Under the pieces are notes generated by a model. That model saw nothing but the letters and a program-made list of their open reading frames with translations, was not told where the DNA came from and did not search any database. Positions 12,224-53,577 of a DNA stretch of 64,000 nucleotides are shown one piece after another (within the stretch, counting starts at the first letter, position 1; every line of letters starts with the position of its first letter). Source of the stretch: an uncultured Planctomycetota bacterium. GTDB lineage: Bacteria > Planctomycetota > Planctomycetia > Isosphaerales > Isosphaeraceae. The stretch spans positions 1-64,000 of the forward strand of contig CAWJTV010000025.1 in NCBI GenBank assembly GCA_963845755.1, written 5' to 3'. The position numbers and the translations under genes were made by a program.

Positions 12224-12341
12224 GCTGCTGTTGCCCCCGAGAACCCAGGTCGGGTAAAATGAGGATAGGGTGGTGAGAAAGACGTGACCAGGGCCGCAAT
12301 TCACAGCCTGCAACGCGACTTAAGTGCCACCGCAACCCGAC

Positions 12342-12427: not shown

Positions 12428-12436
12428 CTAAGCGGC

Positions 12437-12470
12437 ATAAGGGGTTGCGTCGAATGGCGCAACCCCTTAT
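12437..12470 (+). terminator. Stem-loop immediately downstream of the tRNA
   Basis: ATAAGGGGTTGCG...CGCAACCCCTTAT perfect 13-bp stem followed by TCTTT. Confidence 0.65.
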
Positions 12471-12489
12471 TCTTTGGATTCTGGGGCAG

Positions 12490-12509
12490 TTGGCAACAAT
12501 TTGGCAACA
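12490..12509 (+). repeat. Direct repeat TTGGCAACA x2, putative integrase arm-type sites
   Basis: gTTGGCAACAatTTGGCAACAt between the tRNA 3' end and the integrase start. Confidence 0.55.
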
Positions 12510-12536
12510 TCGTCGCGGTGGCATTGGAGTCGTCCA

Positions 12537-24777: not shown

Positions 24778-25264
24778 TTTTTTGTTCCCATGGCGAATGA
24801 CTCCGGGGACCATGCTTTGGATCGTCGGATCGAGACCGAACGTCGTCGGATCCCTCTCTTGCCCAAGGACCATCCCGCACTCGCCACCGCAGCCGACGCG
24901 ACCATCGCAACCAGTGCTCGTGTCCTCTCGGGAGATTGGGCCCGGGCCAGCTCGTCCCACAATTCCATGCCCGAGCGTCCCGACGGTCCATCGGCGTGAC
25001 GATCCGCGCCCATGTCTCCCAGCGCGGCCTCGACGGCTGGGCCGGTGTCCTCTGGCCTCTGCATGAACGATGCTCTCATCGGCAGGCGGCGAGCGACGAT
25101 CGCGGCCTCGGACGACGCCGTGGGCCTGGCCTGCGCCCGGGTCGTGTCCCTGGTTGTGGGTCGGGCGGGTGTCGGAACGGTTGGGGCGAGCTTTCGGCCG
25201 GTCGCGGGCGGGACCTTCGCCTTTCGGTTCTCCGCAGCCGGCGATCGGCCGTTGACCTCCAGGA

Positions 25265-26145: not shown

Positions 26146-29100
26146 TCACGAAGTCGAATGCATGAGATGATTACGAATCCCGACGCTCCCGAAGCGCATG
26201 CCCGGGCTCCGGCTCGATCCGCGGCGGATCGAGCGGAGGGCCGGATCATTCAGGATCGCGTCGCGGTCGTCCTGGTCGGGGGCGTACTTGAGGGCCTCAT
26301 CGAGCAGGTTCATCGCGCGGCTACGATAGTTGCGGTAGAGGGCAATGGCCCGCTCGCCCTGGCGGCTGACGTCCTGGGCGGCGAACTCGACCGCCAGGGC
26401 GTAGACGCGGGCGGCGTTGAAGAGGGCCTGGGCTTTGGCTTTGCGCTCTTCGTCCGTGCGCGGGACCATGGCCGAGGCGAGTCGGGCCGCGGACTCGGCG
26501 TCGGTCACCGCAGGCCGCCAATCGCCCGTCCGGATACGGGCCAACCCTCGACCGCCCAGGGCCTCGCTCTGTTTCGCATCCAGCCGCAGCGACTCCTCGA
26601 AGTCGAGCAGGGCCAGCTTGGGTGCGTCGGCGAAGTAGTAGGCCATGCCGCGCAGGTTCAACAGCCGGGTGCGCGGGGCCTTTGCGGATTCCGGCGTGAG
26701 CTCGAGCGCCTCGTTGAAGTCGGCGACCGCCGCGGTGAATTGCCTGCGCCCCTCGCGGGCCAGGCCGCGGAGCTCGAAGATCTCGGCCGAGCGCTGGCCG
26801 CGCGCGATGAAGGCGTTGGCCGAGGCCAGCACCTCGTCGTACCGCTTCAGCTCCATCAGGGCCGAGATCCGCACGCGATGGGCCGCGGCGTCATCGGGGA
26901 GGATCGCCAGGGCCGCGTCGCAGGCGGCCAGCGTCTCCTGCGCCTGTCCGCCGGCGAAGAAGAGCTTGGCCCGGTCGACGTGGTCCCGGGCCTTGAGCAA
27001 CTTGTCCGGCTCATGGCGGATCGCCTCGTCGAGGTCGCGGATCGCCGCCTTGCGCTGGTCCGGTGTGATGTCGCTCCGGTAGGCATACAGCAGGGCCCGG
27101 CTGCGATACAGCCCGGCCGTCACGATCGGTTCCGGATGGCAGGCGATGGCCCGTTCGAACGACGCGGCGGCGGCGTCCAGCCGACCCTGGCGCTGGTAGA
27201 CCTGGGCCAACGTGGCGTGAGCCGGGTACAGGCTCGGCTTGAGCCGGATGGCCGCTTCGAGGTCGACGACCGCGTCATCGAGGCGGTTCGCCTGGATTCC
27301 CATCAGGCCACGGTTGGTGAGCAGGACGTATCGCAGATCGTCGCTGGGCTTCAGCGTGAGGACCTGGCGGTAATCGGCCTCCGCGGACGCGATCGCCTCC
27401 TTCGCGTCTTGCCGGAGACGGGCGGCTTCCGCTTCATCGGGGTGCGATTGGGCGATCTTTTCCAGGGCCTGGTTGCCCTCCTCCCCGGCGACAAGGGCAC
27501 GCATCAGATACAGGGCCACCAGGTCGCGATGGCTCCGGATGCACGTGGTCAAGCTGGTCCTGGCCTGGCTCAACGCCTTCGGTTGCATGTTGAGGTAGCA
27601 GACCGCGAGCAGGAGGTGGGCCGACGTGTTCTCGGGATCGGCTTGCAGGGCCGAGTTGAGCGGACGAACGGCGTCGGCGAACCGGCGGCGGAGGACCAGC
27701 TCGCGACCGTTGAGAAAGGAGTCCAGCGCCGTCACGGGATCGATCCGGCTGGCTTCTCGATTCTCGCGGTCCCGGCCCGCGAGGTCGCCGGTGCGCTCGA
27801 GGCACTCGGCGCGGCGGCGGTGGTACGCGGCGGTCGTCTTCGGGCGAAGCCGGACCGCCCGGTCCAGAATCCGCAGGCCCTCGGCAGGCTTGCCCGCCTG
27901 CGATAGGATCAAGAGCAAGTTGTAGCAGTCGTCGGCCACCCTGGCCTTCTCGGCATCCTGCAACCCGGCCGGCAACGACTCGATCAGGGTCCAGGCCTCG
28001 TCGGACGCCCCCGGATCCCGGGCGTAAATGGTCAGCGCCTTATGGGCCGAGGCCTGGAGCTTCTCGAATCGGTCCTTCTCGTTCAGCACTCCGAAGCCCG
28101 TCGCGGACAACTGGGCGTCCTGACTCAGGTCCAGGAACTTCTGATAGCGTTCTCTGTCCGCGCGGATGCGTTGCTCGGCCTCTGCGCTCAATCTCTCCGC
28201 ATCAAGCCGCTTGCCCACCCACTTCAGCTTGTCTTCGACGCGGCGTGCAATCTGCTTGAGTCGCGGCTCGGCCTGGGCAACTTTCAAGTAAGTGGCCAGG
28301 TCAACCTGAGCCTCCTGATACTCCTTCTGGCTGTTGGCCCTGTCGGCCACCTCCAGCACCTCCATTCCATGATTCTGCTCCTGGAGGACCCAGGCGTTCT
28401 GCTGGCTCTCATAGTTCAGCTTGTAGCGCTGGTAGCCGATGACGCCTCCGGTCAGGCCGATGAGCAGCAGGACGCCCGCGGCCACGGACAAGGCAGCGAC
28501 CGGGTGCCTCTTCGACCACTTGTACCCGCGCTCCCACACCGTGATTGGCCTGGCCTTGATCGGTCGGCCTTCCCGGTAACGATCCAGGTCGTCGGCCATG
28601 TCCTCGGCCGTCGCGTATCGTCGTTGCGGGTCCTTGTTCAGGCACTTCAGGCAGATGGTCTCGAGATCGCGAGCCAGCCGCGGCACCAACCGTGATGGCG
28701 GCACCGGGTCCTCATGGATGACCAGGCGGACCGTCTCCATCACCGTCGCGCCCTTGAGGGGGGTACGACCGGTCAGGACCTCGTAAAGGATCGCGCCCAG
28801 CGCATAGATATCGGCCGCCGGGCCGACGTCCTTGGTACGTCCCAGGGCCTGCTCGGGAGCCATGTAGCTGGGCGTGCCCATGATGTCGCCGCTTTGGGTC
28901 TGGTGATCCTCCGATTCCAGCCGCTTGGCCAGCCCGAAGTCGGTGATCTTGGGTGTTCCGTCGCCGGCCAGGAGCACGTTGGCCGGCTTGAGGTCGCGGT
29001 GGACGATCCGGGCTTGATGCGCGGCGTGAATGGCCCGGGCCAGGGTCGCCATCAGCTCGGCGGCCGCAATGCCCGGCTGGGGTGTCCCCGCCAATCGAGT

Positions 29101-30149
29101 TGCGAGGTCTCCTCCGTCGAGAAACTCCAGCGAAACGAACGGCATGCCGTCCACTTCGCCGATGTCGTAGATCTGCACGATGTTCGGGTGCCGGAGCTGG
29201 GCGACCGCCTCGGCCTCGATCCGGAAGCGGGCCAGTTGATTCGGCCCCGCCATGCTCCCGCCAATGATCATCTTGAGCGCGACGAGGCGATTCAGCCCTG
29301 TCTGTCGGGCCTTGTAGACGACGCCCATCCCGCCACGGCCGAGCGTTCCCAGGATCTCGTAGCCGGGAACCTCGGGCGTGCCGGTCGTTGATTTCGCCGG
29401 GCTCACGACGGTTGAGGGACCTCGAGGCCGGATCACACTGGCCGTTTGGTTGGGGTCGGTGGCACTCAGGCTGGCCGTTCGGTTGGGGTCGATGTCGTGT
29501 TCATGGCCGGGAATCTCGTCCGTGTTCGCGACGGTCCGGTCAGGGATCACCGACCCGGTGGACGTCTGGGGAGTCAAATCGCCGGTCACCCCGAAATCAC
29601 GAGGCGATTCCGCATCGAAGTGGCCGGCGACTCCGGAATCGGCGATCGGTTGCGCCTCCGGGGCGACGGTCGCCAGGGGATCGACCGACGGACCGAACTG
29701 GACTTCGGTCGGAGCCGGAGAGCGGCCGTTGTCTCCTCGTTCGGTTGGCGTAACCTCTGTAATGATTGAGCATTCGGCGTTTCGAGGGAGGTCATGGTAA
29801 CATCGGACGAAGTGGTCGGTGCCGGTCCGGGACGGCTGCCTTGCCCGGGGATGTCCTCCCGCCGGCCGGGCTGCGGCGTCGGACCATCGTCGGCGATAGT
29901 CCGGTCTGGGTCGGGTCGTGATCCAGGCGGGTGGGGCTCACGGTCGAGTGCGTCGCCCCCAGGACGCTCGACGGCAGGCCGGGCCATGAAATCCGCCGCC
30001 TGAGGATGAGCTTCCAGCAGCCGTTCCACCCGACGGCGCAGCTCGGCATCGCCGCCGCAAGCGTGATCGAGATAATCGGCTCGCTCCGCCGTTGTCTTCT
30101 TGCTCAGCGCGGCAAAAAAAATCGACTCGACCCGTGACGGAGTGCTCAT
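26146..30149 (-). CDS. Ser/Thr protein kinase with a TM helix and a long TPR array; frameshift near 29770
   Basis: N-terminus MSTPSRVESIFFAAL; LGRGGMG, VALK, HRDLKPAN, DFG, GTPSYMAPEQ; TM ALSVAAGVLLLIGL; many TPR-like helices. Confidence 0.92.
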
Positions 30150-30178
30150 GGCATCGCTCCGATCTCGCTGCGCTCCGG

Positions 30179-30278
30179 CCCCGCCTTCGTAAGGGGGGAC
30201 AAGGACCGGGCCGGTTCGCCGGAATCGTCCCCCCCTTACGAAGGGGGGGCGACGCCGACAGGCGTCGGGGGGGGTTCT
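30179..30278. repeat. REP-like palindromic element (two inverted CCCCCTT-x-AAGGGGG hairpins)
   Basis: CCCCGCCTTCGTAAGGGGGG at 30179 and CCCCCCCTTACGAAGGGGGGG at 30229; related copy at 35272..35368. Confidence 0.75.
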
Positions 30279-30509
30279 GCGCATCGGACCTGGGGTGTGC
30301 TCGATTCAACCGTTCGGCTCTCTAGCTCAATGCGACACGACCTACAAGTTTTCAAGTCACTTTTCGTTGTCGTTGATCAGCTACGGGTACCGCCGGCCCG
30401 GCAGCGCCGCACGGCGAGGACCTCCTGCACGGCGGATTCGAACCGCCAGAGCGCGACCACGTGACCTGATGTCAGGAGAGCTGATTCGGGCGCGTTCGCT
30501 CGCTGTCCT

Positions 30510-30539
30510 CAATGCGACGAAACCGCGCGAAACCCCTCA
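30510..30539 (-). promoter_or_regulatory. Conserved bipartite motif, copy 1 (putative ECF promoter)
   Basis: Minus strand TGAGGGGTTTCGCGCGGTTTCGTCGCATTG, oriented toward the TPR kinase start. Confidence 0.6.
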
Positions 30540-30569
30540 ATGATCAAGAACCATTTTTGCTGTCGCACC

Positions 30570-30625
30570 GACGGCGATGACCCAGGGTGCGCCTGCGGCC
30601 ACCCTGGGCTTTGTTGGGGTACGCC
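30570..30625. repeat. REP-like hairpin
   Basis: CCCAGGGTG-cgcctgcggc-CACCCTGGG followed by CTTTG. Confidence 0.5.
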
Positions 30626-30884
30626 AGGCGCAAAGGCGAAATCGTCAGGAGCCGGATCAGCGGTCTCCTCGTGCTTCATCCACCCAGTTGGAGAGATTGT
30701 GACGGCTTGTTGGACCTGGAGGACCTGCTCGGCCCGGATGGCTGCATTCGAGGGGACGTCACACGCCCCAGGAGCACCCAGACCGGGGCCGCCGAGCTCG
30801 CCTGGGGCAAGGGATCGGGATCGAGCGAGACGTGTTTGGCGGCGTCCCGCATCAGCGTCCCCACGTTGTGGCGGCGGACTGGAC

Positions 30885-31037
30885 AGGTTCTCTGCCGAAG
30901 GCGAGGCGCACCAATTGGTTCATTGCATCGAGGCGATCGGTGCCGGGGGCTCGGTTGGCCAGAGCCCGGGCCGATTCCTGGGACAGCCGGCTGTTGAGCA
31001 GGCTCAGCGCCTGGGGAGCGATCGTCGTGACCGCCCG
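30885..31037 (-). pseudogene. DUF1553-like C-terminal fragment
   Basis: RAVTTIAPQALSLLNSRLSQESARALA..LVRLAFGREP resembles the C-terminus of planctomycete DUF1553 proteins. Confidence 0.5.
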
Positions 31038-31135
31038 GCGCCATCGAAGTTGGCACCGGTCAGGGTGGTGCCTGTCAGGTGGAAGCCCTTCCAGTTCTCA
31101 ACGGAGAGGTTGGCCTTGGCCAGCTCGGTTCCGAG
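31034..31135 (-). pseudogene. Pentapeptide-repeat remnant in frame behind the GT41 stop codon
   Basis: LGTELAKANLSVENWKGFHLTGTTLTGANFDGAG directly after TGA 31136-31138. Confidence 0.65.
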
Positions 31136-33033
31136 TCAGTTGGTTTCGCTCATCACGATCGGCTCCGTGCCCTTGTAGTATTGGTTGTCCGATACGACGT
31201 TCCGCACAAACTGAGCGAATTGCTTGGCTCCCTTGGCGGCGTAGACTGTCTTCGTGAGATCGACGTCGGCCAGTCGCTGTGCTTGCTCGGCGCGATAGTC
31301 CACGTCATCCACCAGGCGAATCAACTTCTTGCCGTATTCTTCGTCCGTGGTCGCAATCAGTTCCAGTAAGCCGGCCGAACGCAGCATCGCCGGCCCAATC
31401 CGGTTGAACCAGCGATACCCCTCTCGCACCAGGGTCGGCTTCCGCAGGTACAGATTGTCAGAGACGGTATTCGATCCGGCGAACGGGAAGACGTCGATGG
31501 CGAAGTCCCCTTCTTCCATCAGGGCCATGTATTGCTCGTAGGCCACAGGCGGCACAAGTTCCACCCAGCAATTGTTCAGTTGACGCGACATGTCGATGCT
31601 GAATGCCGCGTTGCCCTTGTGTAGGAACGGGGCTGCTCCGGCAAAAATCCTGACCTTTACCCGGTTCTTGCACTGCTTGAGGGCATTGTTGACCGTTTCC
31701 AGAAACCTCCAGTGAATCTTCTGTCCGGACCAGGAGCCGTTGATCAACACTTCGGAACCGGTTTTCTTGCGGCCCTGAATGGGATAAGTGGGCTCATCGT
31801 GCACCGCACCATAACCTGGCAGAAGGACAAGCCGTTCGGAATAGTTCTGCTGCGCGATGATTGCCAGGTCCACGTCCTGGCCGCTGATGAAATAGTCGAT
31901 CTGTGCGCCAAAGGTGCTCGCAGGATGCCCGGTCATCATCATCTGAACCGGCGCGATCCGGAGATTCGCCATCAAAATCGACGGCAGAGTCATGCCGATG
32001 TCCGGGAAGATCAGCGCCGCAAAGTCGTTCGTAACGAACGGCGACGGGTCCAGTCGTAAACCCTCGCACTTGAGGCGATGGACGTGGTCGAACAACGAGG
32101 TATCGAGTTCATTGATGGGGCGGAGCGAATGCAGCAACGTCAGTTCGAAATCGGATTTCAGCGCTTCGATGTATTTCCACAGAGTCCGATGCACACTATG
32201 GCCTCTGGCCCAGTATTCGCTGAAGACCGCAATCTTCCGCCGATTCGGTGTGTTCTGGATTGGCACCGGCATCCATTTCTGGATCGTCCAGTTGATCAAC
32301 TCCTTGGCCCGTCGCTCTTCAGGAATGCCCAGGTAGGTGCAACCGAAGTAGAGTTCCTGCATATCCAGCGCAGGGACCATCCGGTGTTCCATCTGCGCAG
32401 GAATCGCGAAAGATTACGGGTCACTTTTTCGTTGCAATTGCCGCTGCAGACGACCTTCCAGGTCTGATAAAGCCAAACGCTGGCAAGTTCGGGGCTCCCG
32501 ACCAGCAGGTTGCCGAACTCGACAGGCGTCTCGTTACGGGCCGAGTACAACACCATCGTTTTGTAAACTTGCTGTTTCTGGCCGAACAACTGGCGAATCA
32601 AAGGGTCTGTGGTGGTGCCCAGACAACCCGCCACGATATTGCCGATCATGACATTCTTGGCGAGAACTGGAATCGAAAGCGGCTCCAACACTTCAAAATC
32701 GGGCTGAACGAAGACCGCAAGTGCCGTCGCAACCAGCCTGCCCAGTTGACTCTTTTCGGCGTCATCGAACATCGCGAGATTCAGAGACTCGATCGTCTGG
32801 AGCAAATGCAGGAAAACGAGGTTGGCATTTTCCAGGTTACCCGCCGCATAAGCCATCAAGAGATTCCGGAGAATGGACTCCACCTGGTTGGGGTCTGCGG
32901 AAGCAGCGGAGCCTGGCTGCGGAAGTATGGGTGGCGGCGAGTCGACAGGTTTCGTTTCCCGGAGTTCGGTTTGCATTTGGGCTCCAGCGGCGGAAGCAAA
33001 GTTGCCGTCGGAAGGGTGGTCTTCGGGTGTCAT
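31136..33033 (-). CDS. GT41 glycosyltransferase, HMW1C/NGT-like (OGT/SPINDLY catalytic fold, no TPRs); frameshift near 32390
   Basis: GHSVHRT, PDIGM...NLRIAPVQMMMTGHPAST..IDYFISG, YSERLVLLPG, DVFPFAGSNT, AMLRSAGLLELIATTDEEY; helical N-terminal domain; no signal peptide. Confidence 0.82.
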
Positions 33034-33054
33034 CAAGATCGCCTTGACTTGAGG

Positions 33055-33218
33055 TAATGGCAACTTCGCGTCGGAGATCGGCCGGATTAGCCTCGACGTC
33101 ACGCTCCTGAAGCAGCCGCAAAGCGTCGTCGATCACCTCGTCTTCCGAGGCGAATCCGCCTTCCTGGATGAAGCTCTGGATGATCTGCTCCCGGTCGCCT
33201 GATCAATGGATCATCATA
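33055..33218 (-). pseudogene. ParD-like (ribbon-helix-helix) antitoxin remnant
   Basis: MMIH*SGDREQIIQSFIQEGGFASEDEVIDDALRLLQER..LRREVAI; internal stop, no toxin gene follows. Confidence 0.55.
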
Positions 33219-33296
33219 ATACGTCTACCGGTTGCTTGTGAGCCTACCACGGTCGTAGCGATTTGTCGAGGTGGCCAGGTTGATGCCGGGACCGTG

Positions 33297-35037
33297 GGGT
33301 GGAAGACGCGGTTCGCGCGGCGTTCGATCCCTGGTAAGCTGTCAAGGTGAGTTTCCCAGATTGTCTATCACCCGAAGTCCAAGGAGGGATCTCCGATGCC
33401 TTTCCAGAAGTCACCATCGATGGATCGAGACGGCGTCGAGCGGCTCGCCGAAGGGTGGGGGAAAGTCGTGGCCCGGCGCAGTCCACGATGAGGTCGGGCC
33501 CGAGTTGGATCTCGACGCCGACGACATCGAGCAGATGGCCATCACCGCCGCCCGCGCCGTCGCTCGGGGCACCATCGCCGATCTGCTGGAGCGGAAGGCC
33601 GCGCTGCTGGGGCCCGAGCAACCCTGCCCGACGTGTCAGCGGCCTTGCGCCGTACAGCGCGAGCCGCGGGCCATCGACTTCTGGGGCGGCGCGGTCACCT
33701 ACGCCGAGCCCCAGTGCCACTGCCCGGCCTGCCGCCGGGATTTTTTTCCCTCAGCGCCGGCGCTACGGCTGACGTCCCATGACTACAGCCCCTCGGTAGT
33801 CCGCAAGATCGTCCGTTCCGCCACCCGCGAGCCCTCCTTCCGCGAGGCAGCCGAGGCCGTCGCCGAATTGGCCGAGGTGGACATCAGCGGCCGGCAACTC
33901 GACCGCATCGCCCGCGAACTCGGCGAGCAGTTGCGGTCCCAGCGGGATGAGCAGGTGGACCGCTTCCAGGCCGGCACGCTCGAGCCGCGCGTCGCGACAC
34001 GGCCAGCCCTGGCGGTCGTCGAGGTCGATGGCGGCCGGCTCCAGATCCGCGGCGCGGGCCAGGGGCCGGGAGCCCACCAGGCCGCCTGGCACGAGGACAA
34101 GATCGCGATCCTGGCGACGATGGCCCCTGTCGTCTCCGAGTGCGACCCCGAGCCGGAATTGCCCGCCTGTTTCCGCGATCGGGCCTACGTCGAGAAGGTC
34201 ATCGGGGCCATCGGCGGGACCGGACCGATGGGCCCGCCGGCCCCCGAGATCCAGGAGCCCGCCGTGCTGCCGATCCCGGCCGTCGCCGAGGCCGCCGAGC
34301 CGCGCGGTACGCCGGAGCTATCGGTGCGCACCTACGTGGCCACGACCGCCCCGGTCGATCGCTTCGGGCCGATGGTCGCCGCCGAGGCCCGACGGCGGAA
34401 CTTCGCCGCGGCCGCCGCCCGGGCGTTCTTGGGGGACGGCTCGGCCTGGATCTGGGGGCTGCACCGCCGCTCTTTCCCGACCTTCGTGGCGATCGTCAAC
34501 TTCCTCCACGCCCTGGCCCACCTCTTCACGGCGGCCCGGGTCATGGTCGCCGACACCGAGGGCCGCTGGGAGTCATTCCAGGCCTGGGCGGAGGCCTGCT
34601 GGAACGGGCGGGTCGATCGGGTGATCGCGGAGCTTCGCACCTGGTGTGATACCCAGATCGCCTTGTGCGGGTGCCCGCTGGAAAGGCTAGCCGACGACGA
34701 CCCCCGGAGGATCGTCGCGCGGGTGCTGGGCTACCTGGAAGACAACCGGGAGCGGATGGACTATCCGCGGCTATCGTCGCGAGGGCCTCCCGTGGACGAC
34801 CAGCCACGTGGAGTCAACGGTGAAGATATTCAACCGCCGGGTGAAGGGGTCGGAGAAGTTCTGGAGCGAGGCCGGTGCCGAAGCGATCCTCCAACTCCGT
34901 GCGGCCTTCCTTTCCGAAGATGGCCGCCTGGACCGCCACCTCAAGGAGCGGCCCAGCAGCCCGTTCCGCAGCTACAAAGCCAGGAAGACTGGGGAAGCCG
35001 CGTAACTCGTCAGAAAAACGAACCGCGTCTTCCACCC
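33297..35037 (+). mobile_element. ISKra4-family-like IS with intact ends
   Basis: Perfect 19-bp IRs GGGTGGAAGACGCGGTTCG / CGAACCGCGTCTTCCACCC; 9-bp TSD GGGACCGTG (33288-33296 and 35038-35046); transposase motifs CPTC..CPAC, VDGG, GDGSAWIW, FLHA, MDYP, VESTVK..RVKG. Confidence 0.9.
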
Positions 35038-35100
35038 GGGACCGTGGGGAACCTGTCTGGGCGGGGGCTGCACGGACAACAACCGGGACCATCCGCCACG

Positions 35101-35445
35101 CTACTTTGTGAACTCGCCCTTCTCGTGGCGAGCCCAGAACTCTGCCGCCGTCCGAACTTGGCCCCGGTCGATGCCGATGATTCTGAGACTCTTCCTGCCA
35201 TGCAAGATATCCAGGCCCTTCTTAGAGCGCTTCACGGTTGGGTTGCGCACACGCGAAGCCGGTTCCCAAAGAACCCCCCGGAACCCCCTGTTCGCAAGGG
35301 GGGGACCATTGAAGAGGAGTGGACCATTTCCTGTCTCCCCCTTGCGAAGTGGGGGTTCCGGGGGGTGGATTCGCATCGCTCTGGGCGTGCGCAACGCAAC
35401 TGATAAGTGCTCTAGTGATGTTCTTGGGGGTCAGGCGGATGAGGG
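35101..35445 (-). pseudogene. 3' remnant of a second LRR-kinase gene, interrupted by a REP-like element
   Basis: IRLTPKNIT .. KGLDILHGRKSLRIIGID..AAEFWARHEKGEFTK matches the end of 22037..24777 (IRLTPKNLTTQGLEAL..AAEFWARYEKGEFKK), also at DNA level. Confidence 0.75.
35272..35368. repeat. REP-like palindromic element, second copy
   Basis: AACCCCCCGGAACCCCCTGTTCGCAAGGGGGG...CCCCCTTGCGAAGTGGGGGTTCCGGGGGGT long inverted repeat. Confidence 0.75.
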
Positions 35446-35471
35446 GACCGATTGAACTTTTTTTCAGGAGA

Positions 35472-35501
35472 TGAGGGGTTTGCCTGGCAATCGTCGCATT
35501 G
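35472..35501 (+). promoter_or_regulatory. Conserved bipartite motif, copy 2 (putative ECF promoter)
   Basis: TGAGGGGTTTGCCTGGCAATCGTCGCATTG, oriented toward the pentapeptide-repeat gene. Confidence 0.6.
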
Positions 35502-36007
35502 TGGAAAGAGAGTTCACGCGGCGTCATCAGCAATCGGTGTCCGAAGGCTGGAGAAACGCCAGGCCGCAGTAGGCAAAGCCCGTTGATTCCGTACCGTACA
35601 GTCCCATGTCGCCCGGCGGAGTTCCGGCCGCGGCAGTGGTCGTCGTACGCGCCGCGGGACTCAAGTGCGATCGGTCCGTCGGTCCCGGAGTGGAGGCTGC
35701 CGCGTTCGACTCCCACGAAGGATCTCAGTCCAGGAGCAGTTCCATGCCGCTTCAGACGCCGATGTGGCCCCTCTGGGGTGCGGATCAACGACGACGAAAA
35801 GTGACTTGAGGACTCGTTGGTGGTGCCCGACGCGGTGCTGGACCTCCCCAACGGAGGGGGGCGGTCCGGGCCCGGTCCAGCCGATCAGGTCCTCGGGGTC
35901 GAAGGGGCGATCCACTCGACTCGACTCGCTCCGGCGCCGCGTTCGGCTTAACAAGCCGGATTCTCCCTTCTTGAGTTCTTCTCCATCTCAACTTTGTCGA
36001 GGGATCT

Positions 36008-39000
36008 ATGAACCTGAACCGACCATCGACCCCAGCGGAAAGAGCCACCGTCACGGCCTTCGATTCCAACCACCACCGACTGCGACGCCCGAAGTCCTTC
36101 GCTGAGACGCGGAGGTCCCGCGCCCTTCGGCCGCTGCTGGAGACATGCGAGACCCGCAGGCTCATGAGTGCCGGGGTCGCGGGGAGCGCAGGAACCAAAG
36201 CACAATCGATGCTCATGGCCGCGCCTGACTTGAGAAAAGGAGTCTCTCAACCTATCGCTCCGCTCGAGTTTTCGGGTGTGAGCCTGACCCCGGGCTGGTC
36301 GGACCGTCCCATTGTTCGGTACCTTGGACCTCACTTTCCCCCTGAGGAAGGCAAGCAAGTTTACTGGCACCCTGGTCCAGGCGCCGGGCAGCACCTCGTC
36401 CGTAGTCGGCAAGGGGCCACTGGTGGCGTCCGGCCACACCCTGGCCGTCAAGGGCAGCTTACATAACCAAATCATGAAACTGAACGTGCGCATCGCACCG
36501 AAACGGTGGGTGCAGTGGATCGGCCCGGTCGTGTCGGCGAGGCTGCCCGACGGCCAGATCACGTTGGACGGGGGCGGTGTGCTGGCCAGCGGCAATCAGA
36601 TCGCGGGCGATGCGATCCGGCGAGGAAAAGCAACAGTGCTGAATGCTCCTGCGTTGCAGCCTCACTTCCGCGTGCCGGCCAAGGGCACTCCGAGCACGGG
36701 CACCTTCACTCTGCATGGCCCCAGCGCCGTCCTGCCCGCGGACACACTGCAGAATCCCAGAGCCGTGAAGCGCATCATCCCGGCCGGGACCACGCTGGTA
36801 CCGACCGCCTTCCTTGGCCAGGTGACCCAGGGCCCGGACAAGGGGTTGGCCGTGCGCGGGGTGCTCTCGCTGGGCCAGGTGGGCAGCGACGGCTCGATCG
36901 CCGGCACCCTGGCCGACCCGATCAACGGCCCCGTACCGGTCACCGGCCGGGTGGTGGGGCAGCGGATCCAGCTCAACTTCAACCTCGGCTCCAAGGGTAC
37001 CGCCGGGGGTGTCGGGCCATTCATCGCGAAACGGGTCGGGCCGGGCCAGATGCAGTTGACCGCCTTCGGCTCGCTCCAGACCGGCAACCCGGCCGACTCC
37101 GGTGACTGGTCGTACATTAATAGCGTGCTCAACAATATGACTCTCAGCAATCTGACAGGTTACGTCCTGAACCAGGACGGCGTCTATCTGATCGGGACGA
37201 ACTTCACGGGGACAACCTTTTCGCAGGCCACTCTCACCGACTCGGAGGTCGATCCGACGGTCCAATTCCTGAACGCGGACTTCTCTGCCGTCCCAGGGGG
37301 AGCGAACCTCACTAACACCACGTTCCTCAGCGGCTCGAGCCTCGCCGGGACCAAACTGAGTGCGGCCAATCTCACCGGGGCCAATCTCACCGGGGTGAAT
37401 CTGACCGGGACCAATCTCACCTCGGCCAACCTCGCCAGTGCCAATTTCACCGGGCAATCCCTGGGGGGATACAATCTGACCGGGGACAATCTCACCATGG
37501 CGAATCTGACCGGGGACAATCTCAACGCGTCGATTCTGACTGGGACCAATCTCACCGGGGCCAACCTCACCAATGCCGCAGTCGGCGGGCCGATCGCCGG
37601 CACGGGGCAGAACTTGTCGGGATTCAATCTGACCGGGACAATCCTGACCGGGGCGACTCTGGCCAAGGCCAACCTGACCGGGGCGACTCTGACCGGGACC
37701 AATCTCACCGGGGCCACCCTCACCAATGCCACCCTCACCGGGGCCACTCTGTCGGGTATCCAACTTGATCGGAGCCAATCTGTTCGGAGCTGCCCTGAAT
37801 AATGCCAATCTGGCCAATATCACCCTGAACAACACGACCAACCTGGTCGTGACCAACCTGGCCAATGCCAATCTGACCAATGTCAACCTGTACTCTGTAC
37901 ATATGGGCGAAGCCAACCTGGCCGGGGCCATCCTGACTGGGACCAACCTGGTCGATGCAATCATGACCTACGACAACCTGGTCGGCCAGAACCTGTCGGG
38001 ATTCAATCTGACTGGGACGTATCTGGGCGGGACCAACCTCACCAACGTCAACCTCACCGGCCAAAACCTGTCTGGATACAATTTGAACGGGGGCGTCCTG
38101 ACCGGGGCCATCCTGACCAACACCAACCTGACCAAGGTCGGCTTCGTGAACTCCACCCTTATCGGGCAGAACCTGTCGGGATTCAATTTGACCGGGGACT
38201 ATTTGGAAGGGACCATCCTGACCAATGCCAACCTCACCGGGGCCAACCTCACCAATGCCGTCATGAACGGGACTAACCTGTCGGGATTCAACTTGACCGG
38301 AGCGACTCTGACCGGGGCGTTTCTGACGGGGGTCAATCTCACCTCGGCCAACCTCACCACCGCTACGCTCACGGGAGAGAACCTGTCGGGATTCAATTTA
38401 ATCGGGGCTAACTTGAACGGGGCTGTGCTGAACAATGCCAATCTGGCCAATGCCAACCTGAATAACACGACCAACCTGGTCGTGACTAACCTGGCCAATG
38501 CCAACCTGACCAATGTCAACCTGTACTCGGAATCTATGATCGAAGACAATCTGTCCGGGGCCATCCTGACCGGGACCAACCTGGTCGATGCAACCATGTA
38601 CTACGCCAACCTGGTCGGCCAGAACCTGTCGGGATTCAATCTGACCGGGACCGCTCTGACCAATGCCAATCTCGCCAACGTCAATCTCACCGGGCAAAAC
38701 CTGTCTGGATACAATTTGAACGAGGCCGTCCTGACCGGGGCCATCCTGACCAACACCAACCTGACCAATGTCAGCTTCGTGAACTCCACCCTCATCGGGC
38801 AGAACCTGTCGGGATTCAATCTGACCGCGACCCTCCTGGGCGGGGCCAACCTCACCAATGCCAACCTCAGTGGGGAGAACCTGTCGGGATTCAATTTGAC
38901 CGGGGCCAATCTCAGCGGGGCGACACTGACCGGGACCAATCTCACCTCGGCCAACCTCACCAATGCCAGCCTCACCGGGGAGAACCTGTCGGGATTCAAT

Positions 39001-40011
39001 CTGACCGCGACCCTCCTGGGCGGGGCCAACCTCACCAATGCCAACCTCAGCAGCCAGAACCTGTCGGGATTTAATCTGACCGGGGCCAATCTCAGCGGGG
39101 CGACACTGACCGGGACCAATCTCACCTCGGCCAACCTCACCAATGCCAGCCTCACTGGGGAGAACTTGTCGGGATTCAATCTGACCGGGACCCTGCTGGG
39201 CGGGGCCAACCTCACCAATGCCAACCTCAGCAAGCAGAACCTGTCGGGATTCAATCTGACCGGGGCCCTCCTGGGCGGAGCCAACCTCACCAATGCCAGC
39301 CTCAGCAAGCAGAACCTGTCGGGATTCAATTTGACCGGGGCCAATCTCAGCGGGGCGACACTGACCGGGACCAATCTCACCTCGGCCAACCTCACCAATG
39401 CCACTCTCACCGGGCAGAACCTGTCGGGATTCAATCTGACCGGGGCCCTCCTGGGCGGAGCCAACCTCACCAACGTCAAACTCACCGGACAGAACCTGTC
39501 GGGATTCAATTTGACCGGGGCCAATCTCAGCGGGGCGACACTGACCGGGACCAATCTCACCTCGGTCAACCTCACCAATGCCAACCTCACCGGGCAGAAC
39601 CTGTCGAACTTCAACATGACCGGGGCCAATCTCGTCGGAGCGACTCTGAGCGGTGCCATCCTGTCCTTAACCAATCTCACCTTCGCCAACCTCACCGGGG
39701 AGAACCTGTCATTAAGTAATGTTAATTTGACCGGGATCTACCTGATGAATTCCACCTGCACCAACGCCAACTTCTCCGGGCAGAACATGTCGGACTACTG
39801 GTTCAACGGGACCAACTTGGCCGGGGCCAACTTCACCAACGCCAACATCGTGGGGGCAAACCTCTTCCTCAACGTCCAATACGGCAACGTCACCTTGGAC
39901 AACCTCACCGGCGCCAACATGGACGGGGCCAATGCAAGTGGGATTCTGACCCTTTCGCAATGGTACTCCATCCCCAATCTCACTTGGAACTCGACGACAA
40001 ACTTTGGTTGA
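36008..40011 (+). CDS. Large exported pentapeptide-repeat (beta-helix) protein, about 1,300 aa; frameshifts near 36310 and 37760
   Basis: Leader RALRPLLETCETRRLMS (LEPRxLL-like); beta-rich middle region; then about 900 aa of xNLxx repeats (ANLTG, QNLSG, FNLTG). Confidence 0.88.
37760..39700 (+). repeat. Hierarchical internal DNA repeats of the pentapeptide gene
   Basis: Block encoding NLIGANL..NNTTNLVVTNLANANLTNVNLYS recurs about 630 nt later; CTGACCGCGACCCTCCTGGG recurs at 38821 and 39001 (180-nt period); AACCTGTCGGGATTCAAT recurs many times. Confidence 0.9.
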
Positions 40012-40234
40012 CTAGCATAGGAGACGGGACCGATCTGCAAATAAGGGTTCTCCCGCACTTTTGATGGTGACACTGACTGTGCCACTTGGAGGCCAAACGA
40101 CTGCGAATCCCGTCAAAATGGGGGGCTTCTGTGGGAGTTGGCCGTCGTGGATCATCAAAAAGTGAGGGAGAACCCCTCGGAAACCGTCGCTGACAGGCTT
40201 TGCCCACAAAGGTTTTATGGGCACTGACTTTATG

Positions 40235-41853
40235 CAGTAGTTTCCCGGAAGAAGTGCACTCGATTACTGATCAGAAGTACCGTATTGAAAGCGGCGTCTC
40301 CTGGCCGGAACCTGCCGGGTGGTGACAAACCCATGGCCCCGACACAGGAGACGCACCATGACCGAAGCTACGCTCACCTGGTCCATCTGGCAAGCTCTGC
40401 TCGAGGCCTTCGCCTGCTCGTTCACCCGCCGCGGCTTCCGCCGCTTCGCCGAGTGGATCACCGCCATGGCGCTCAACGTCGAGGAGCACACCATCACCCA
40501 GTCGGTCCTGGCCCTGGAGCAGCCCGCCGCCTGGAAGGCCCTGGAGAACTTCGCCGAGTACGGCGGCTGGCACGAGGGCCGCGTCACCTACGACCTGACC
40601 CGCCTGGTCGCAGACCGCCCCGGGTCGGATCTGGCACGGCTATCACGTCTCGGCCGTCGACGACACCAAGGTCCATCGCGGCAGCCCGCACGTCTGGGGG
40701 ACCTGCACCTTCCACGAGTACACCGCCCGCTGCCCCAATCGGGCCTCCACCGTCCGCGCCCATAACTGGGTGGTCCTCGGCGCCGTGCTCCACGAGCCGA
40801 GGAAGCCCGGCTGGTTCCTGCCGATCACCGGCCGGCTCTACTTCCGCAAGTCGCAGTTGCCGGCCGGCCCGGCCGGCTCGTGGCGTTCCGGACCAAGTGC
40901 GAGTTGGCCGTGGAGTTGTTCCGCGAGCAGGCGCGGATCGCCCCCGGCCACAAGCACCTGGGCGTCGTCGACGGCGGCTTCGCGCTGCGGAGCGTGGTCC
41001 GACCGCTGGTCCTGCCCGAGGACGGCACGCCCCGGATCGACTTCCTGACCCGGCTGCGGCACGACGCCCGGCTCTTCGCCCTGCCCCCGCCGAGCGCCCC
41101 GCGGGGAGTCGGGGGCCCAAGCCCAAGTGGGGCCGGCGGCTGGAGCCGCCGTGCCGAGGCGGCCGGTGGAAGGTGGAGTGGCGAACCGGCAGCCGCCTTC
41201 GTCTACGGCCGCGAGCGGAAGGTCCGCTGGAAGGAGATCGTGTGCCTGTGGCGGGTGCTGGGATGGGAGGTGCCGGTCAAGGCGATCGTCGCCGAGGTCG
41301 AGGGGTACAAGAAGCGGTTCACCTTGGTGACCTCGGCGATGGAGCTGACCGGGCTGCAGATGGTGGAGTTGTTCGCGGCGCGGTTCCGGCAAGAGGACGG
41401 GTTCCGCGACCTGAAGCAGCGGCTGGGCTGGGAGGAGTGCCGGGCGTGGACGAGCCAACCCGATCGAGCGGACCAGCCAGGCGCAATGGGTGACGATGAG
41501 CCTGCTGCGGCTCCTCCAATTCCGGCTGGAGGCGGCCGGGGAGGAGGATTGGTGGTTCCGACCGCCGTGGAACAAGGACAAGGACCGTCCCAGCGTGCTG
41601 GACGCGGAGCGGCTGATGCGGCGGCATCGGGCGGAAATCCAGCGGCTTCTGTCGGAGTGGCTGGGAGATGAGGGAGAAACCGAGGAGGCCGTGGCATGAG
41701 CGAGGTGTAAGCGGGTCAACAGCGGGCATCGCGAGGTGCTCCCGCGGGCGGTGCAGCAGCGAGAAACGCTCGGTGGCGAGGTGGGGCCGCCGCGGCGACA
41801 GGCGGCGGTACGCATCAGGCCGCGATTGTGCATTTTTTCGCAGGAAACTACTG
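40235..41853 (+). mobile_element. IS701-like element; transposase 40358..41699, frameshifted
   Basis: IRs CAGTAGTTTCC..TGCAC / GTGCA..GGAAACTACTG; motifs VDDTKVHR, HNWVVLG, DGGFA, RLRHDARL, RFRQEDGFRDLKQRLG. Confidence 0.85.
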
Positions 41854-41959
41854 ATTATCCGGCGCCAAAAGAGTCGGGCCAGCAGTTTGGCCGGCCCGCA
41901 CTGCGTGCGCCACTGAATATGCAAAAATGTTCATTAGAACGTTGGCGAGCACTCAGATG

Positions 41960-42489
41960 ACCGCTTCGTCGATGTCGTCGAAGCCGCGACCCTCTTTGGT
42001 CTTGGGAAGATCAGCGACTTTTGGCAAGAGACCGCGCTTCTCCTCAGTGCGGTGAGCTTCGTGACGAGCACATATGGCTCGATGTAGAGATCCGTTTCCT
42101 CGTGGAACTCCTTAGCGATGAGTTCCGAGATGTCCTCATCGTAGGAGAGGACATCGGAGCCGTTCTCCAGGACAGTTACGTTGTCGTAATAGATGCCGAC
42201 AAGCACCTCAGTCTGTTCGGCCGTAAGCTCGGGCAGAGGCGGCAAACTGCGGTGGTTGTCGCCGAGTTGCACCCAGCGTGCCGTCTTGCGTTGAACCCTC
42301 ATGTAGTGCACCAGATCCTGCGCGGTATCCGAGCAATTTGACAGAGTGCGCCACTCCTGGACGAATGCAGCTTTCTCCGCGGGGAATCCGTCGAACGAAT
42401 CGACGGGGATGCGATACTTCAGGTACAGCTCGACCAGAAGAGCGCAGTTCGTGCTCAAAGAGCCGGATTGACTTCCTCCGAGTCTTCAC
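41960..42489 (-). CDS. Hypothetical protein, frameshifted at both ends
   Basis: Protein-like ORF 41934..42458 (LLVELYLKYRIPVDSF..KLTALR); probable start GTG 42489 in another frame. Confidence 0.55.
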
Positions 42490-42598
42490 TACGATATCCC
42501 TCGTTCAGTGGAAGGGACGGCGGTCGAACTCACCATAAGAACGATCGCCGTCCCCGATACCTACTTCACCTCTTGACCGTCCTCTCCCGTCGCCCCAT

Positions 42599-43746
42599 TT
42601 AACTCAGGTCTAAATGCGATCTGAGAGTAGGATTTTCCATCAAATTGTTGTCGCCCTCGTTGGACGGCACTGTTTGGGCGGCTTCTTCGATTCGCTTTTG
42701 CAACTCATCGTGCCGGACGCCGGTGATTCGCTCCGCGTCAGCCCAACTGAGTTTCTTCGTGTGAATCCCGGATTCAAGCATCAATTCAAAATTGATTGCT
42801 CTGTCCCGCCACACATAACCGGGCTCCCTCTGCCGCCACCCGCGACGGATCATCTCGGACCATAGCCATCGCGATGTCGTGGTATTGATGATGCGTTCCT
42901 TCTCGGCCATGTGGACCATCGCGGCTAGTGAAACGCCGAACCTCTCCTTGTACTGGATCAAGTTGAGAAAGGATTTGCCTTGGAATGCGGCCCTTAGCTG
43001 CGAAGCCGGGATCAGCAGTGACGAGGCGAACGAATAAGCCCGCCGTTCGACATCAGAATCGGTCCAACCATGAAGTTGGCGGCATCCCTGATAGAGCGGT
43101 TGTCCCAATTCGTAAGCGGCATTCATCGCGGACCCGCTCGTTCGCAACGCCGGGATTGAGGACGACGACAAATTCATTCCCGTATTGCGCGAGCAGCTCC
43201 ATCGATACCGAAAGTGGTCTTAATCTCCAAAGCCCATGCCGAGAACGACTCCAGGACATTAACCATGTTCTGGATTGGCTGTTCGTCAGAGAGATTCAAG
43301 AATTTTGAACGAACCATGTTCGCCAGGTCGTCGGGCGAGTCCTCATGGATATTTAAGGACTTGGAATGATGTGACGGGTGGCCTTTGAGGAACCCATCTA
43401 GCTTCAGATAAGCTTCTACCCACTTGCCAGCTAGAGCCTCGAATTGCCGCTGATCGTTAAGCGGACGCGGGACCTCATGTTGCGATAGCGAAAGCAGTCG
43501 AGAGTCGTGCGGTTCTCCAGGAACCAATTCAAGGGCCTCCCATAGATGTCCGCCAGAGCCGCCAATACGTTTATGGGCGGCACGGTAACGCTCTTCTCGT
43601 AGCTGGCGATGGTCGTATGAGAGACAGTAAGTCTATGGGGAAGCTTTTCGGCCGTCGGCTCTCATCGATAAACCGGCTTCCCGCTAGCTTCTCGGAGACG
43701 TCGGGCTAAGTTGCGATCAAATAGAGTGACGATGGTTTTTTGCCAC
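42599..43746 (-). pseudogene. XRE HTH + ImmA/IrrE-like metallopeptidase, multiply frameshifted
   Basis: LARRLREA..SHTTIASYEKSVTVP..LAALAD (HTH); AYELGQ at the HExxH position; ERRAYSFASSLLIP; FGVSLAAM. Confidence 0.75.
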
Positions 43747-52065: not shown

Positions 52066-53577
52066 GATCAACGACCTTCAGTCGGGTGTGGATAATCCCA
52101 CCGGATCCCCGGAGGCACCCCGGCGACCCAGGTCTCGCGACCGCGGAATTCGCGTTGGCGTCCGGGACCGGACCTGAAACGGTCAGCGCAGCACTCTATC
52201 AGGACATGGAGATGCCGTACAGAAGGGACTCACCGAAGACTCCTCAAGGAACTTCCGAAGTTGAATTTCGAACAACGGAAGCCGGATCGTCTTTTCCGAC
52301 ACCCGCGCCCGCTCCGATCTCACCAGCCCAACCCTGGCGCGGTCGCGAACGGATGGCGCGGGAAGTTCGCGTCGGCCAACAGGTCGCGGATGTCGGCGCG
52401 GCTGCGGAGCGGATCGCCGTTTGTTGGGGTACACGTTGATCACCTCGCGAATGCTGTCCAACTCGGACAGCAGCCGTTGATGCCGCTTGGGGGAATGTCG
52501 ATCAATATGTCCCACGTGCCCGGCGCGGGTGGCTTCCTGCCAGAGGGCCTGGGACAATCCCCATTGGAAGACCTCGGCACAGATCGGCGCGGGCCCAGTG
52601 CCGTCGACAGCGGCGACGATATCCTCCAGCCTGCCCAGATATTTTTTGCCATCACACGTCGGCGGCGGTTGTCAACGCGCGGCAGTGGGAGTACATAGTA
52701 GTTGGTATGCCCCTTAACGTGCTTGGCTTCCAGGCGTTCTATGGTGACCTCCCTCATGGATGACGAGGGAGGAACGTTTAGGGCGTACGTATGAGGAATT
52801 CAAGCCTAAGAACGAATTAGGAAACTCGGGCTGGGTGGGATCCATCGATAGCGAGGCAACCTGCGGGAGTCCGGGGCGATGACCTGCCTCAAGTTTGACA
52901 CTCCCTTACCTTCAGCTATGCATGAGTTCCCCGCTTCGTTGAAGCCTGAAGTCGAGAAATGGCTTGAAAACGACCTTGCCGAAGCGAGCACTCGCCGGGA
53001 ATCGCTTTCAGAACACGACGTTAGAGCGCGTATCGGTTGGATTGCGCACGCCCCGGGACGACGCGAAGCCCCCGCTAAACTTCAGGCTGAAAATAAAATC
53101 GGAATTTTTAACTGCCGCTGGGGCTGAGAGTTGGGGCGGCTCTCGGCCGAAATCCCCGCTAGGTGCATTAACGGTTTTCCAAAGTTGCGGCATCCTGAGA
53201 GTATGGCCCACGTGCGATCACTCCCGAGACGGACTCCCGGCCCGCGCCTCCCGGTTCAGCCCGTCGTCGCAACCGGATTTCCGCAAAAGAGATCGGGGAG
53301 GGCGACATGGAAAAAAGATGTCCCATTGTGCCACTTGATGACACCCGCATCGGTCGGTGAGTCCCGAAGGGGACCTGCGGTCGGCCGGGTGGCCAGGTCC
53401 GCAGACCGTACCACAGCGCGGGCGCGGGCCACGCAACTATGAGGCGCTCTGGGCGACGTGTGAGGATGGAACTCGACTTTGAGCCGAGGAGCGCAAAATC
53501 CGCAACCGGAACCCGATTTCCTGGCGACATCGCTTGAGGGGTTCCGAGAGGATTCGTCGCAGGATCGGAGTCATGCC

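Follow-up and report, generated by a model that had tools for sequence, protein, structure and literature searches.

An HMW1C-like glycosyltransferase gene beside a sequon-rich pentapeptide-repeat gene in a planctomycete: a candidate N-glycosylation system

The first 64,000 nucleotides of contig CAWJTV010000025.1 (contig C25; this whole stretch is called the window here), from an uncultured member of the Isosphaeraceae (Planctomycetota; GenBank assembly GCA_963845755.1, 14.27 Mb in 49 contigs, 87.9% complete and 3.3% contaminated), carry two divergent genes. One, on the minus strand (31136-33033), encodes a glycosyltransferase (GT) of family GT41, and the other, on the plus strand (36008-40011), encodes a pentapeptide-repeat protein (PRP) with an extreme load of N-x-S/T sequons and a near lack of Asp at the repeat position that holds Asn. 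We propose, with a probability of about 0.55, that the pair is a dedicated system for cytoplasmic N-glycosylation, similar to HMW1C and HMW1 but acting on a substrate of a new kind. An earlier interpretation of the window, made without database searches (the sequence-only reading), had put forward such a system; the divergent layout that it described was found as stated, and its interpretation as a whole is partly supported.

In the proposed mechanism, the GT, a protein of about 630 residues with an all-alpha domain, a GT-B fold, and no signal peptide, would add single sugars from a UDP-sugar to the Asn of N-x-S/T while the neighboring protein of 1,334 residues is in the cytoplasm and has yet to fold. 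The glycosylated protein would then be exported, directed by its Arg-rich N terminus with a LExLExRxLLS-type motif, and would fold as a right-handed quadrilateral beta-helix, a rod of about 20 nm. Approximately 44 to 46 coils with a rise of about 4.8 Å each would make up this rod, with the Asn at position i-1 and the Ser or Thr at i+1 facing outward and sugars on four faces.

Assignment of the glycosyltransferase

The motifs on which the sequence-only reading had likened the GT to HMW1C and N-glycosyltransferases (NGTs), namely, GHSVHR, NLRIAPVQ..GHPAST, and FPFAGSNT, are all present in the minus-strand translation of 31136-32392. The upstream frame that supplies the N-terminal part has no hydrophobic stretch at its N terminus, in agreement with its description as a signal-less enzyme. 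The GT41 GT-B catalytic domain (PF13844) was matched at 27.8 bits (cut-off, 25 bits), and the sole NCBIfam match was to the NGTferase model NF049992 (E value of 1.9e-24), aligned over 253-597 of its 614 positions. In a phmmer search of the PDB, AaNGT and ApNGT were matched with E values of 7e-20 to 1e-19 (74 to 75 bits), compared to 1e-9 for SPINDLY and 4e-8 for OGT (36 to 41 bits). A profile built from 23 members of the GT family (A1) aligned over its positions 6-559 with residues 15-614 of ApNGT, all-alpha domain included, with an E value of 3e-51, and it matched SPINDLY in the GT-B half only (E value of 1.6e-17). A Pfam scan of the N-terminal part found no tetratricopeptide-repeat (TPR) family. 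The fold was tested on P0008, a 76%-identical ortholog of the window GT, with an AlphaFold2 model of high quality (predicted local distance difference test score of 89 and predicted template modeling score of 0.87). The 10 best Foldseek matches of this model were ApNGT and AaNGT chains, with template modeling (TM) scores of 0.77 to 0.81 over about 606 to 631 aligned columns, and the OGT and SPY chains had TM scores of about 0.5. Sequence, profile, and modeled fold all place the GT with ApNGT, AaNGT, and HMW1C, in the NGT branch of GT41, and not with OGT and SPINDLY.

A published account of ApNGT (PMC10466321) names nine functional residues: D215 and M218, which read the Ser or Thr at position +2; Y222 and H371, which flank the acceptor Asn; and K441, H495, Y501, N521, and D525, which contact UDP. 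It also states that a D215N mutant stays active and that Thr is preferred at the sequon. These positions were mapped through HMMER alignments and the alignment of the 23 family members. At the residues named there, the window GT is identical to ApNGT at Y222, H371, K441, Y501, N521, and D525 (ApNGT numbering), and eight of the nine are kept or conservatively replaced. The UDP contacts are retained at four of five positions, where K, Y, N, and D are invariant or nearly so among the 23 members, and the catalytic Lys lies in SGQKIH. The acceptor-reading motif DVYM of ApNGT is ELYF in the window (within ELYFGCTY), with Y217 and Y222 kept, and H371 falls in GHPAST; Y222 and H371, the Asn-pocket residues, are invariant in the family. 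That the GT acts on Asn is plausible.

The position of ApNGT Q469 is probably Ala in the window GT (IFAGAA) and a small residue in the family, an assignment made tentative by a gap nearby. The Q469A replacement is said to widen the donor range of ApNGT. If the alignment at this position is correct, the donor pocket may take a sugar larger than glucose.

Architecture and sequon content of the repeat protein

Three overlapping frames (36008-36466, 36312-37802, and 37726-40011) make up a repeat gene of 1,334 codons, close to the approximately 1,300 amino acids estimated before. The Pfam Pentapeptide family (PF00805) was matched with E values of 3.8e-125 (407 bits over 19 stretches) and 1.4e-30. 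Pentads of an A(N/D)L(S/T)G-type periodicity could be parsed in register, 175 with a filter on the center residue and 183 without it. The protein holds 112 sequons, 91 in the frame 37726-40011 and 21 in 36312-37802, compared to 31 and 7 expected from the amino acid composition; hand counts of about 90 and about 20 had been given. NxT and NxS sequons occur at 58:33 in the main block. The description of the repeats as almost all xNL(T/S)x was too strong, with 89 of the 175 pentads (51%) of the form N-[LFMIV]-[ST], although Asn stands at i-1 in 116 (66%) and Ser or Thr at i+1 in 123 (70%). The rarity of Asp at i-1 was borne out, with a single Asp among these 175 pentads. Without the center filter, Asn was counted in 118 of 183 pentads, Asp in 2, Ser or Thr in 127, and both sequon residues in 90. 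The protein as a whole is Asp poor and uncharged. In the PRP fold, residues i and i-2 point inward and residues i-1, i+1, and i+2 point outward. The "Asn ladder" that had been proposed was loosely worded, as the i-1 Asn side chains of this fold would lie in arrays on the surface and not in a ladder inside the helix.

The main repeat frame is the most sequon-dense of the 24,236 open frames of at least 200 amino acids in the genome, with 11.8 sequons per 100 amino acids compared to 2.3 at the 99.9th percentile. Among 6,484 frames of at least 400 amino acids, only three reach 2.9 sequons per 100 amino acids, and two of these belong to the repeat gene. It is plausible that this protein is the substrate of the adjacent GT. 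The third frame, which is unrelated (C27:252116-253831; 18 sequons in 572 amino acids), has a hydrophobic, classical-looking N terminus and repeats rich in N, S, and T, and could be a further substrate candidate.

We compared the repeat protein with three sets of PRPs. In 29 open reading frames (ORFs) from 29 planctomycete PRP loci (1,035 pentads), Asn was found at i-1 in 32% and Asp in 31% of the pentads, and 11% were of the sequon type (maximum of 48%, in a 27-pentad fragment). In 40 PRPs from five cyanobacteria that have the GT family (1,684 pentads), the corresponding values were 46%, 23%, and 22%, with a maximum of 60% in a protein of 15 pentads and of 43% among those with at least 30 pentads. 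In the 120 long PRPs most similar to the query among 5.8 billion proteins, Asp had a median of 28% and a minimum of 8%, and sequon-type pentads had a median of 19%, a 90th percentile of 34%, and a maximum of 60%, with three proteins at 45% or more. Total sequons in these 120 proteins had a median of 25, and none of the proteins had more than 57, compared to 112 in the window protein; Asp at i-1 amounted to 0.6% in the window protein, compared to 8 to 36% among the 25 of the 120 that were listed. The window protein is also longer, with about 175 to 183 pentads compared to 13 to 123 in the comparison sets. Its sequon density is therefore not ordinary for PRPs. In the sequon total and the lack of Asp, the protein is clearly outside the range, and in the fraction of sequon-type pentads, it lies at the end of a broad distribution. 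However, 3 of the 120 proteins and two short fragments reach 45 to 60%; values of this size point to PRPs as inherently sequon prone.

The N-terminal domain of about 270 residues belongs to no Pfam family and has 32 relatives among 1.84 billion representative proteins. Among 201 genomes of the same class, it was found in one, the source genome itself. The closest relative of this domain (P0127; 70% identity), encoded on a 6,070-bp JGI contig, is likewise a sequon-rich, Asp-poor PRP, with 26 sequon-type pentads of 64, 4 Asp, and 30 sequons in total, and a distant relative (P0137) has ordinary Asp-containing repeats with 2 sequon-type pentads of 35. No gene locus for P0127 was confirmed in two metagenome scans (one with alignment A3 and one with a stretch of P0127).

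N-terminal motif

The N terminus of the repeat protein carries a motif of the form L[ED]x[LRCFM][ED]xRx[LMVAT][LMP][STA] (for example, LEVLEDRPLLS) that occurs 70 times in the genome, 63 times within the first 150 residues of an ORF; the reversed pattern was found only two times. Other large repeat proteins (on contigs C22, C1, C35, and C24) have looser variants at their N termini. The planctomycete neighbors of GT relatives, described below, bear the same motif (FFQQLESRELLTS, LETLEDRWLAT, LSLECLDERLLPS, and similar). The motif probably acts as a signal for sorting or export in planctomycetes. No NCBIfam model covers the motif, which may correspond to the annotation type "LEPR-XLL."

Relatives of the glycosyltransferase and their neighbors

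The GT family consists of proteins of about 600 residues from Planctomycetota and many Cyanobacteria (295 matches). The nearest orthologs come from metagenome-assembled genomes (MAGs) of Isosphaeraceae and other Planctomycetota, and one of the relatives (P0006) is 92% identical to the window GT. In a phylum-wide sample, the family was detected at an E value of 1e-20 or lower in 3 of 301 genomes, the source genome included. A 5.8-kb contig of genome G253 has a GT match and no sequon-rich ORF. Two GT41 matches in genome G266 were set aside as weaker paralogs in unrelated contexts. In the same genome, a weaker GT41 paralog at about 14 to 17.5 kb of contig C66 (L110) lies a few kb from ORFs that resemble flagellar rod proteins, as judged by their N termini.

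At many loci, the relatives are encoded beside large proteins rich in sequons. The neighbors at L001, L002, and L009 are divergent and have 3.1 to 3.6 sequons per 100 amino acids, that of L002 with immunoglobulin (Ig) and dockerin domains. Neighbors with DUF5649 repeats were found at four loci in MAGs of Gemmataceae and other planctomycetes (L030, L031, L048, and L060; 3.2 to 7.7 sequons per 100 amino acids). These contain 11 to 16% Asn, and their Asp content is 0.3 to 2.4% in DUF5649-rich pieces and 3.5% in the 6393-8939 piece of L060. DUF5649 reportedly appears in a paper on fibrillar adhesins, and a glycoprotein context for this domain is possible. The neighbor at L055 has 120 sequons in 2,396 amino acids, and that at cyanobacterial L041 is also sequon rich. 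In Cuspidothrix, Tumidithrix, and another cyanobacterium (L040, L047, and L058, with L059), the GT adjoins proteins with a two-partner secretion (TPS) domain, one of which, at L058, carries a C-terminal CHAT domain; these loci look like the HMW1-type arrangement outside Proteobacteria. Across all these neighbors, Asn ranges from 8 to 16% and Asp from 0.3 to 3%, except at L050 (6 to 8% Asp) and L041 (4.7%). An arrangement like that of the window, with the GT gene linked to the gene of a large repeat protein, is also seen at L001, L002, L009, L047, and L060 and at further loci. In a quick maximum-likelihood tree, from which 10 of the 71 loci were omitted (GT match of less than 450 residues), the window GT, L001, and L002 form a clade (SH-aLRT support of 95), and all three have a divergent, sequon-rich neighbor with the same N-terminal motif.

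The window protein was rejected as a homolog of the other neighbors, to which it gave just weak, composition-driven blastp matches (best E value of 0.002). Such matches argue against orthology, so that what recurs is an NGT-type GT whose neighbor is an exported, Asp-poor solenoid rich in N, S, and T; the fold of this partner varies. More tentatively, and at less than even odds, the GT family may be an undescribed and horizontally scattered branch of cytoplasmic N-glycosyltransferases in Planctomycetota and Cyanobacteria that coats adjacent exported beta-solenoids (DUF5649, TPS, Ig/dockerin, and pentapeptide proteins), whose substrates evolve Asn in place of Asp and become saturated with sequons. 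The rod encoded in the window would then be the extreme case; it would bear over 100 N-linked sugars and exceed every known bacterial protein in the density of its N-glycosylation.

Evidence against the proposed system and alternative explanations

Several observations weigh against a dedicated N-glycosylation system, and we set them out here together with the alternatives. The repeat protein has no classical signal peptide, and its export is predicted from the N-terminal motif.

The strongest alternative, which we regard as unlikely but far from negligible, is that the adjacency is a coincidence, or that the GT serves other motif-bearing exported proteins or something else, and that NL(T/S) is simply a duplicated A(N/D)L(S/T)x consensus. 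Sequon-type pentads are the consensus of the PRP family, in which they average 11 to 22% in the first two comparison sets. The four richest planctomycete PRPs of the sample come from genomes without a GT-family match (G251, G176, G010, and G203); genome G073 also lacks such a match. The co-occurrence of GT and PRP that the sequence-only reading suggested looking for did not recur: none of the 71 loci of GT relatives has an adjacent PRP, and the sole PRP-like ORF is small and 9 kb away (L057). Flanks were usable at 35 loci, of which about 10 have a neighbor that is sequon rich or has a TPS domain and 25 have none; the ratio of observed to expected sequons in the neighbors is 1.0 to 2.0, so their sequon content is mostly compositional, which applies less to the window protein itself. 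Within loci, adjacent ORFs were slightly denser in sequons than nonadjacent ORFs (Mann-Whitney P value of 0.02), and 6 of 105 adjacent ORFs reached 2.9 sequons per 100 amino acids, compared to 6 of 365 nonadjacent ORFs (Fisher P value of 0.03). The excess in adjacent ORFs was not significant after correction for composition (P value of 0.13). This comparison was based on crude ORF calling, and the L030 neighbor was absent from both lists.

The repeat gene itself can be read in the same way. The product of the marginal frequencies of Asn and Ser/Thr (0.66 by 0.70, or 0.46) compared to the 0.51 observed leaves no coupling of the two residues beyond these frequencies. Recent duplication is evident in higher-order units of 180 and 255 nucleotides with 84 to 91% identity (38616-39641), and the gene also contains a 633-nucleotide duplication. 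The N-terminal motif is borne by at least 63 other ORFs, including several large ones with 23 to 60 sequons. The two genes also have no compositional history in common. The GC content of the GT gene is 0.56, compared to 0.644 for the genome, which is among the lowest 2% or so of 2-kb windows, and its GC content at third codon positions is 0.66 to 0.74, compared to 0.85 in the neighboring kinase and a host-like 0.81 to 0.83 in the repeat gene. The atypical composition of the GT gene fits horizontal spread. By coincidence, however, the most sequon-dense of about 24,000 frames would have to lie beside the single-copy GT gene, the only one of the NGT type in 14.3 Mb. A coincidence would also leave unaccounted for a sequon total about double the highest value in the 120 similar PRPs, with a near absence of Asp unmatched among them, and the retention of sequons across much of the repeat region where the DNA is just 60 to 70% identical. 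All three members of the clade of the window GT, moreover, have a divergent sequon-rich neighbor.

The genes might also be decaying remnants, with real frameshifts and a shared control region disturbed by an insertion sequence (IS), so that neither protein is made; we consider this improbable. As assembled, both genes are broken in frame, with three breaks in 5.9 kb of coding sequence, and an IS that is active, with 11 copies, lies between them together with an element that resembles a miniature inverted-repeat transposable element (MITE). In the GT gene, the minus-strand frame 31136-32392 translates to a 418-residue GT41 fragment, and the frame 32296-33102 supplies the N-terminal part. In tblastn searches with intact homologs of 615 to 656 residues, the gene was matched in two segments in different frames, which meet at 32398 with P0007 and P0008 and overlap at 32386-32398 with P0010; the N-terminal piece is 55 to 64% identical to these three proteins. 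The GT family model likewise gave two matches in the window (model positions 169-587 and 4-170). The GT is thus encoded by a single gene of approximately 630 codons that contains one frameshift, at about 32398, where the homologous segments meet. In the repeat gene, frameshifts lie at about 36290 and about 37757 (37757-37760), the first of which is read through by the metagenomic relative P0127.

These three frameshifts are probably assembly indels. Public reads were represented by contigs from four soil-metagenome runs of one study, which contained at most 0.21 of the sampled words. Compared to these short-read contigs, the assembly differs by single-nucleotide indels at 33480, 33756, and 34769, all in the multicopy IS, where other copies may be the source, and at 35937, in unique sequence. 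Such a rate, roughly one indel in every 2 kb of covered unique sequence, would be high enough to explain the three breaks in 5.9 kb. The sites at 32398, 36290, and 37757 have no read-contig coverage, so the breaks themselves are presumed, rather than observed, to be assembly errors. Frame breaks are also common in unrelated genes of the window, pointing to an assembly liable to single-base indels: a Ser/Thr kinase with leucine-rich repeats (22037-24960) and the kinase/STAND NTPase/FGE-sulfatase frames (53464-58396) are split. Outside the frameshifts, the two genes are open and well conserved (76 to 78% identity to intact orthologs), which speaks against remnants.

Slightly less probable still is O-linked transfer, or transfer to some other acceptor residue, in which the GT would decorate Ser and Thr of the repeats in the manner of OGT and SPINDLY. 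The GT is a GT41 member with only about 20% identity to ApNGT, and its NGTferase score of 86.2 bits is far below the equivalog cut-off of 1000, so that it is to be seen, by sequence, as a distant branch and not as an NGT equivalog. Among the ApNGT residues named in the account cited above, the +2-reading D215 is Glu and M218 is Phe in the window GT, and H495 is Pro. At the D215 position, 21 of the 23 family members have D, E, Q, or N. Ser or Thr at i+1 in 70% of the pentads would suit O-linkage as well. An O-directed enzyme is at odds with the full-length match in fold and profile to NGTs, with an all-alpha domain in place of TPRs (no TPR match was obtained in the N-terminal part in the Pfam scan), and with the invariance of Y222 and H371 in the Asn pocket; the bias from Asp to Asn at i-1 is also expected for an Asn-directed, not an O-directed, enzyme. 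That sugar-free Asn/Thr faces bind ice, mineral, or polysaccharide, with the GT irrelevant to the repeat protein, is very improbable: N-L-T would put Asn and Thr on the same outward strand face in the PRP geometry given above, beta-helical antifreeze proteins have T-x-N/T-x-T arrays, and the protein is Asp poor and uncharged in an organism known from soil metagenomes, but the neighboring NGT-type gene and the recurrence of such GTs beside N/S/T-rich proteins would be left unexplained.

Comparison with known systems

To our knowledge, only a few proteobacterial pathogens and their adhesins provide examples of cytoplasmic N-glycosylation of the NGT type. The window GT resembles HMW1C, ApNGT, and AaNGT (PDB 3Q3E, 8J30, and 8P0O; NF049992) in its all-alpha domain and GT-B fold, as modeled, and in its lack of a signal peptide. 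As with HMW1C and HMW1, it is encoded beside a large N/S/T-rich repeat protein, and the neighbors of its cyanobacterial relatives, and only those, even have a TPS domain like that of HMW1. In contrast to these systems, the host is a planctomycete and not a proteobacterium, and the candidate substrate is a pentapeptide helix with 112 sequons rather than a TPS or autotransporter adhesin. The repeat protein gave no TPS match, and no TpsB, Omp85, or POTRA protein or second GT was found among the 68 window ORFs scanned. HMW1C-like genes on plasmids of Escherichia coli and Salmonella belong to the same family (24 to 25% tblastn identity over 90 to 97% of the query; E values down to 4e-24), and on plasmid NZ_OP242267.1, such a gene directly follows that of a very large protein with an ESPR signal. 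The plasmid genes differ in having the longest branch of the tree, a codirectional order, and a neighbor with a classical extended signal peptide.

OGT and SPINDLY share the GT-B superfamily PF13844 with the window GT, with weaker matches confined to the GT-B part. Oligosaccharyltransferase (OST) is membrane bound and acts outside the cytoplasm, where it transfers glycans en bloc from a lipid carrier. The sequon that PglB and OST read is the same N-x-S/T, according to PMC10466321; the window GT differs from them as a soluble enzyme of the NGT type with an unrelated fold. The repeat protein differs from the PRPs MfpA, Qnr, and HetL in its motif-bearing N terminus and in an N-terminal domain of no known family. 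Most known PRPs either mimic DNA in the cytoplasm or have no assigned role. In the literature searched, we found no PRP described as a glycoprotein and no work that joins pentapeptide repeats with N-glycosyltransferases or HMW1C with Planctomycetes; matches for HMW1C with cyanobacteria looked unrelated, as judged by title and the start of the abstract.

If the proposal is correct, the pair would bring the NGT type of system to a new phylum and to a new substrate fold, and the known biology of bacterial N-glycosylation would broaden to include a separate NGT branch of free-living planctomycetes and cyanobacteria, with natural substrates of other folds. Pentapeptide repeats would gain an extracellular, glycosylated role. 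ApNGT is a favored tool for making N-glycoproteins, as stated in PMC10466321, and the window GT would add an enzyme whose sequon-reading motif differs (ELYF in place of DVYM) and whose donor pocket may be larger. The rod would offer a regular multisite scaffold for glycoengineering.

Organization of the locus

The features of the locus are listed in Table 1. The start codons of the two genes (33033 and 36008) lie 2,974 bp apart, or 1,233 bp after removal of the 1,741-bp IS, which matches the spacing of about 1.2 kb that had been estimated. The IS has perfect 19-bp terminal inverted repeats and is present in 11 copies in the genome with at least 99.4% identity. Most copies contain one open frame of 568 codons, and the window copy differs from most by three single-nucleotide indels; the 11 copies vary at nine indel columns. 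The element at 35216-35420 has seven further copies on other contigs (91 to 94% identity) and nested inverted repeats, and it resembles a MITE or a repetitive extragenic palindromic (REP)-type repeat.

Table 1. Features of the glycosyltransferase and pentapeptide-repeat locus (positions in the window)
Feature	Position	Strand	Remarks
GT41 NGT-like C-terminal part, 418 codons	31136..32398	-	Stop codon 31136-31138; ELYFGCTY, GHPAST, SGQKIH, FPFAGSNTVSD
GT N-terminal all-alpha-domain part, other frame	32398..33033	-	Likely ATG 33033, alternative 32976
IS, ISKra4-family transposase	33297..35037	+	NCBIfam NF033572, E value of 2e-34
MITE-like repeat, about 200 bp, internal inverted repeats	35216..35420		Genome copies
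Repeat-gene 5' segment, Arg-rich N terminus	36008..36290	+	Motif LLETCETRRLMS at 36137-36169
Repeat-protein nonrepeat N-terminal domain	36291..37097	+	No Pfam family
Pentapeptide-repeat region, about 175 to 183 pentads, 110 sequons	37098..39960	+	PF00805
Repeat-protein C-terminal tail, short, nonrepeat, with stop codon	39961..40011	+	

An Rfam scan of 28000-43000 found no family, and the signals in promoter and terminator scans were not above those in shuffled controls. Several mobile elements are present in the region, among them a phage-type integrase and a DDE_Tnp_1-associated ORF upstream (12395-13852 and 11661-12368). A DUF1559/N_methyl protein, a hallmark of planctomycetes, is encoded at 58427-59710.

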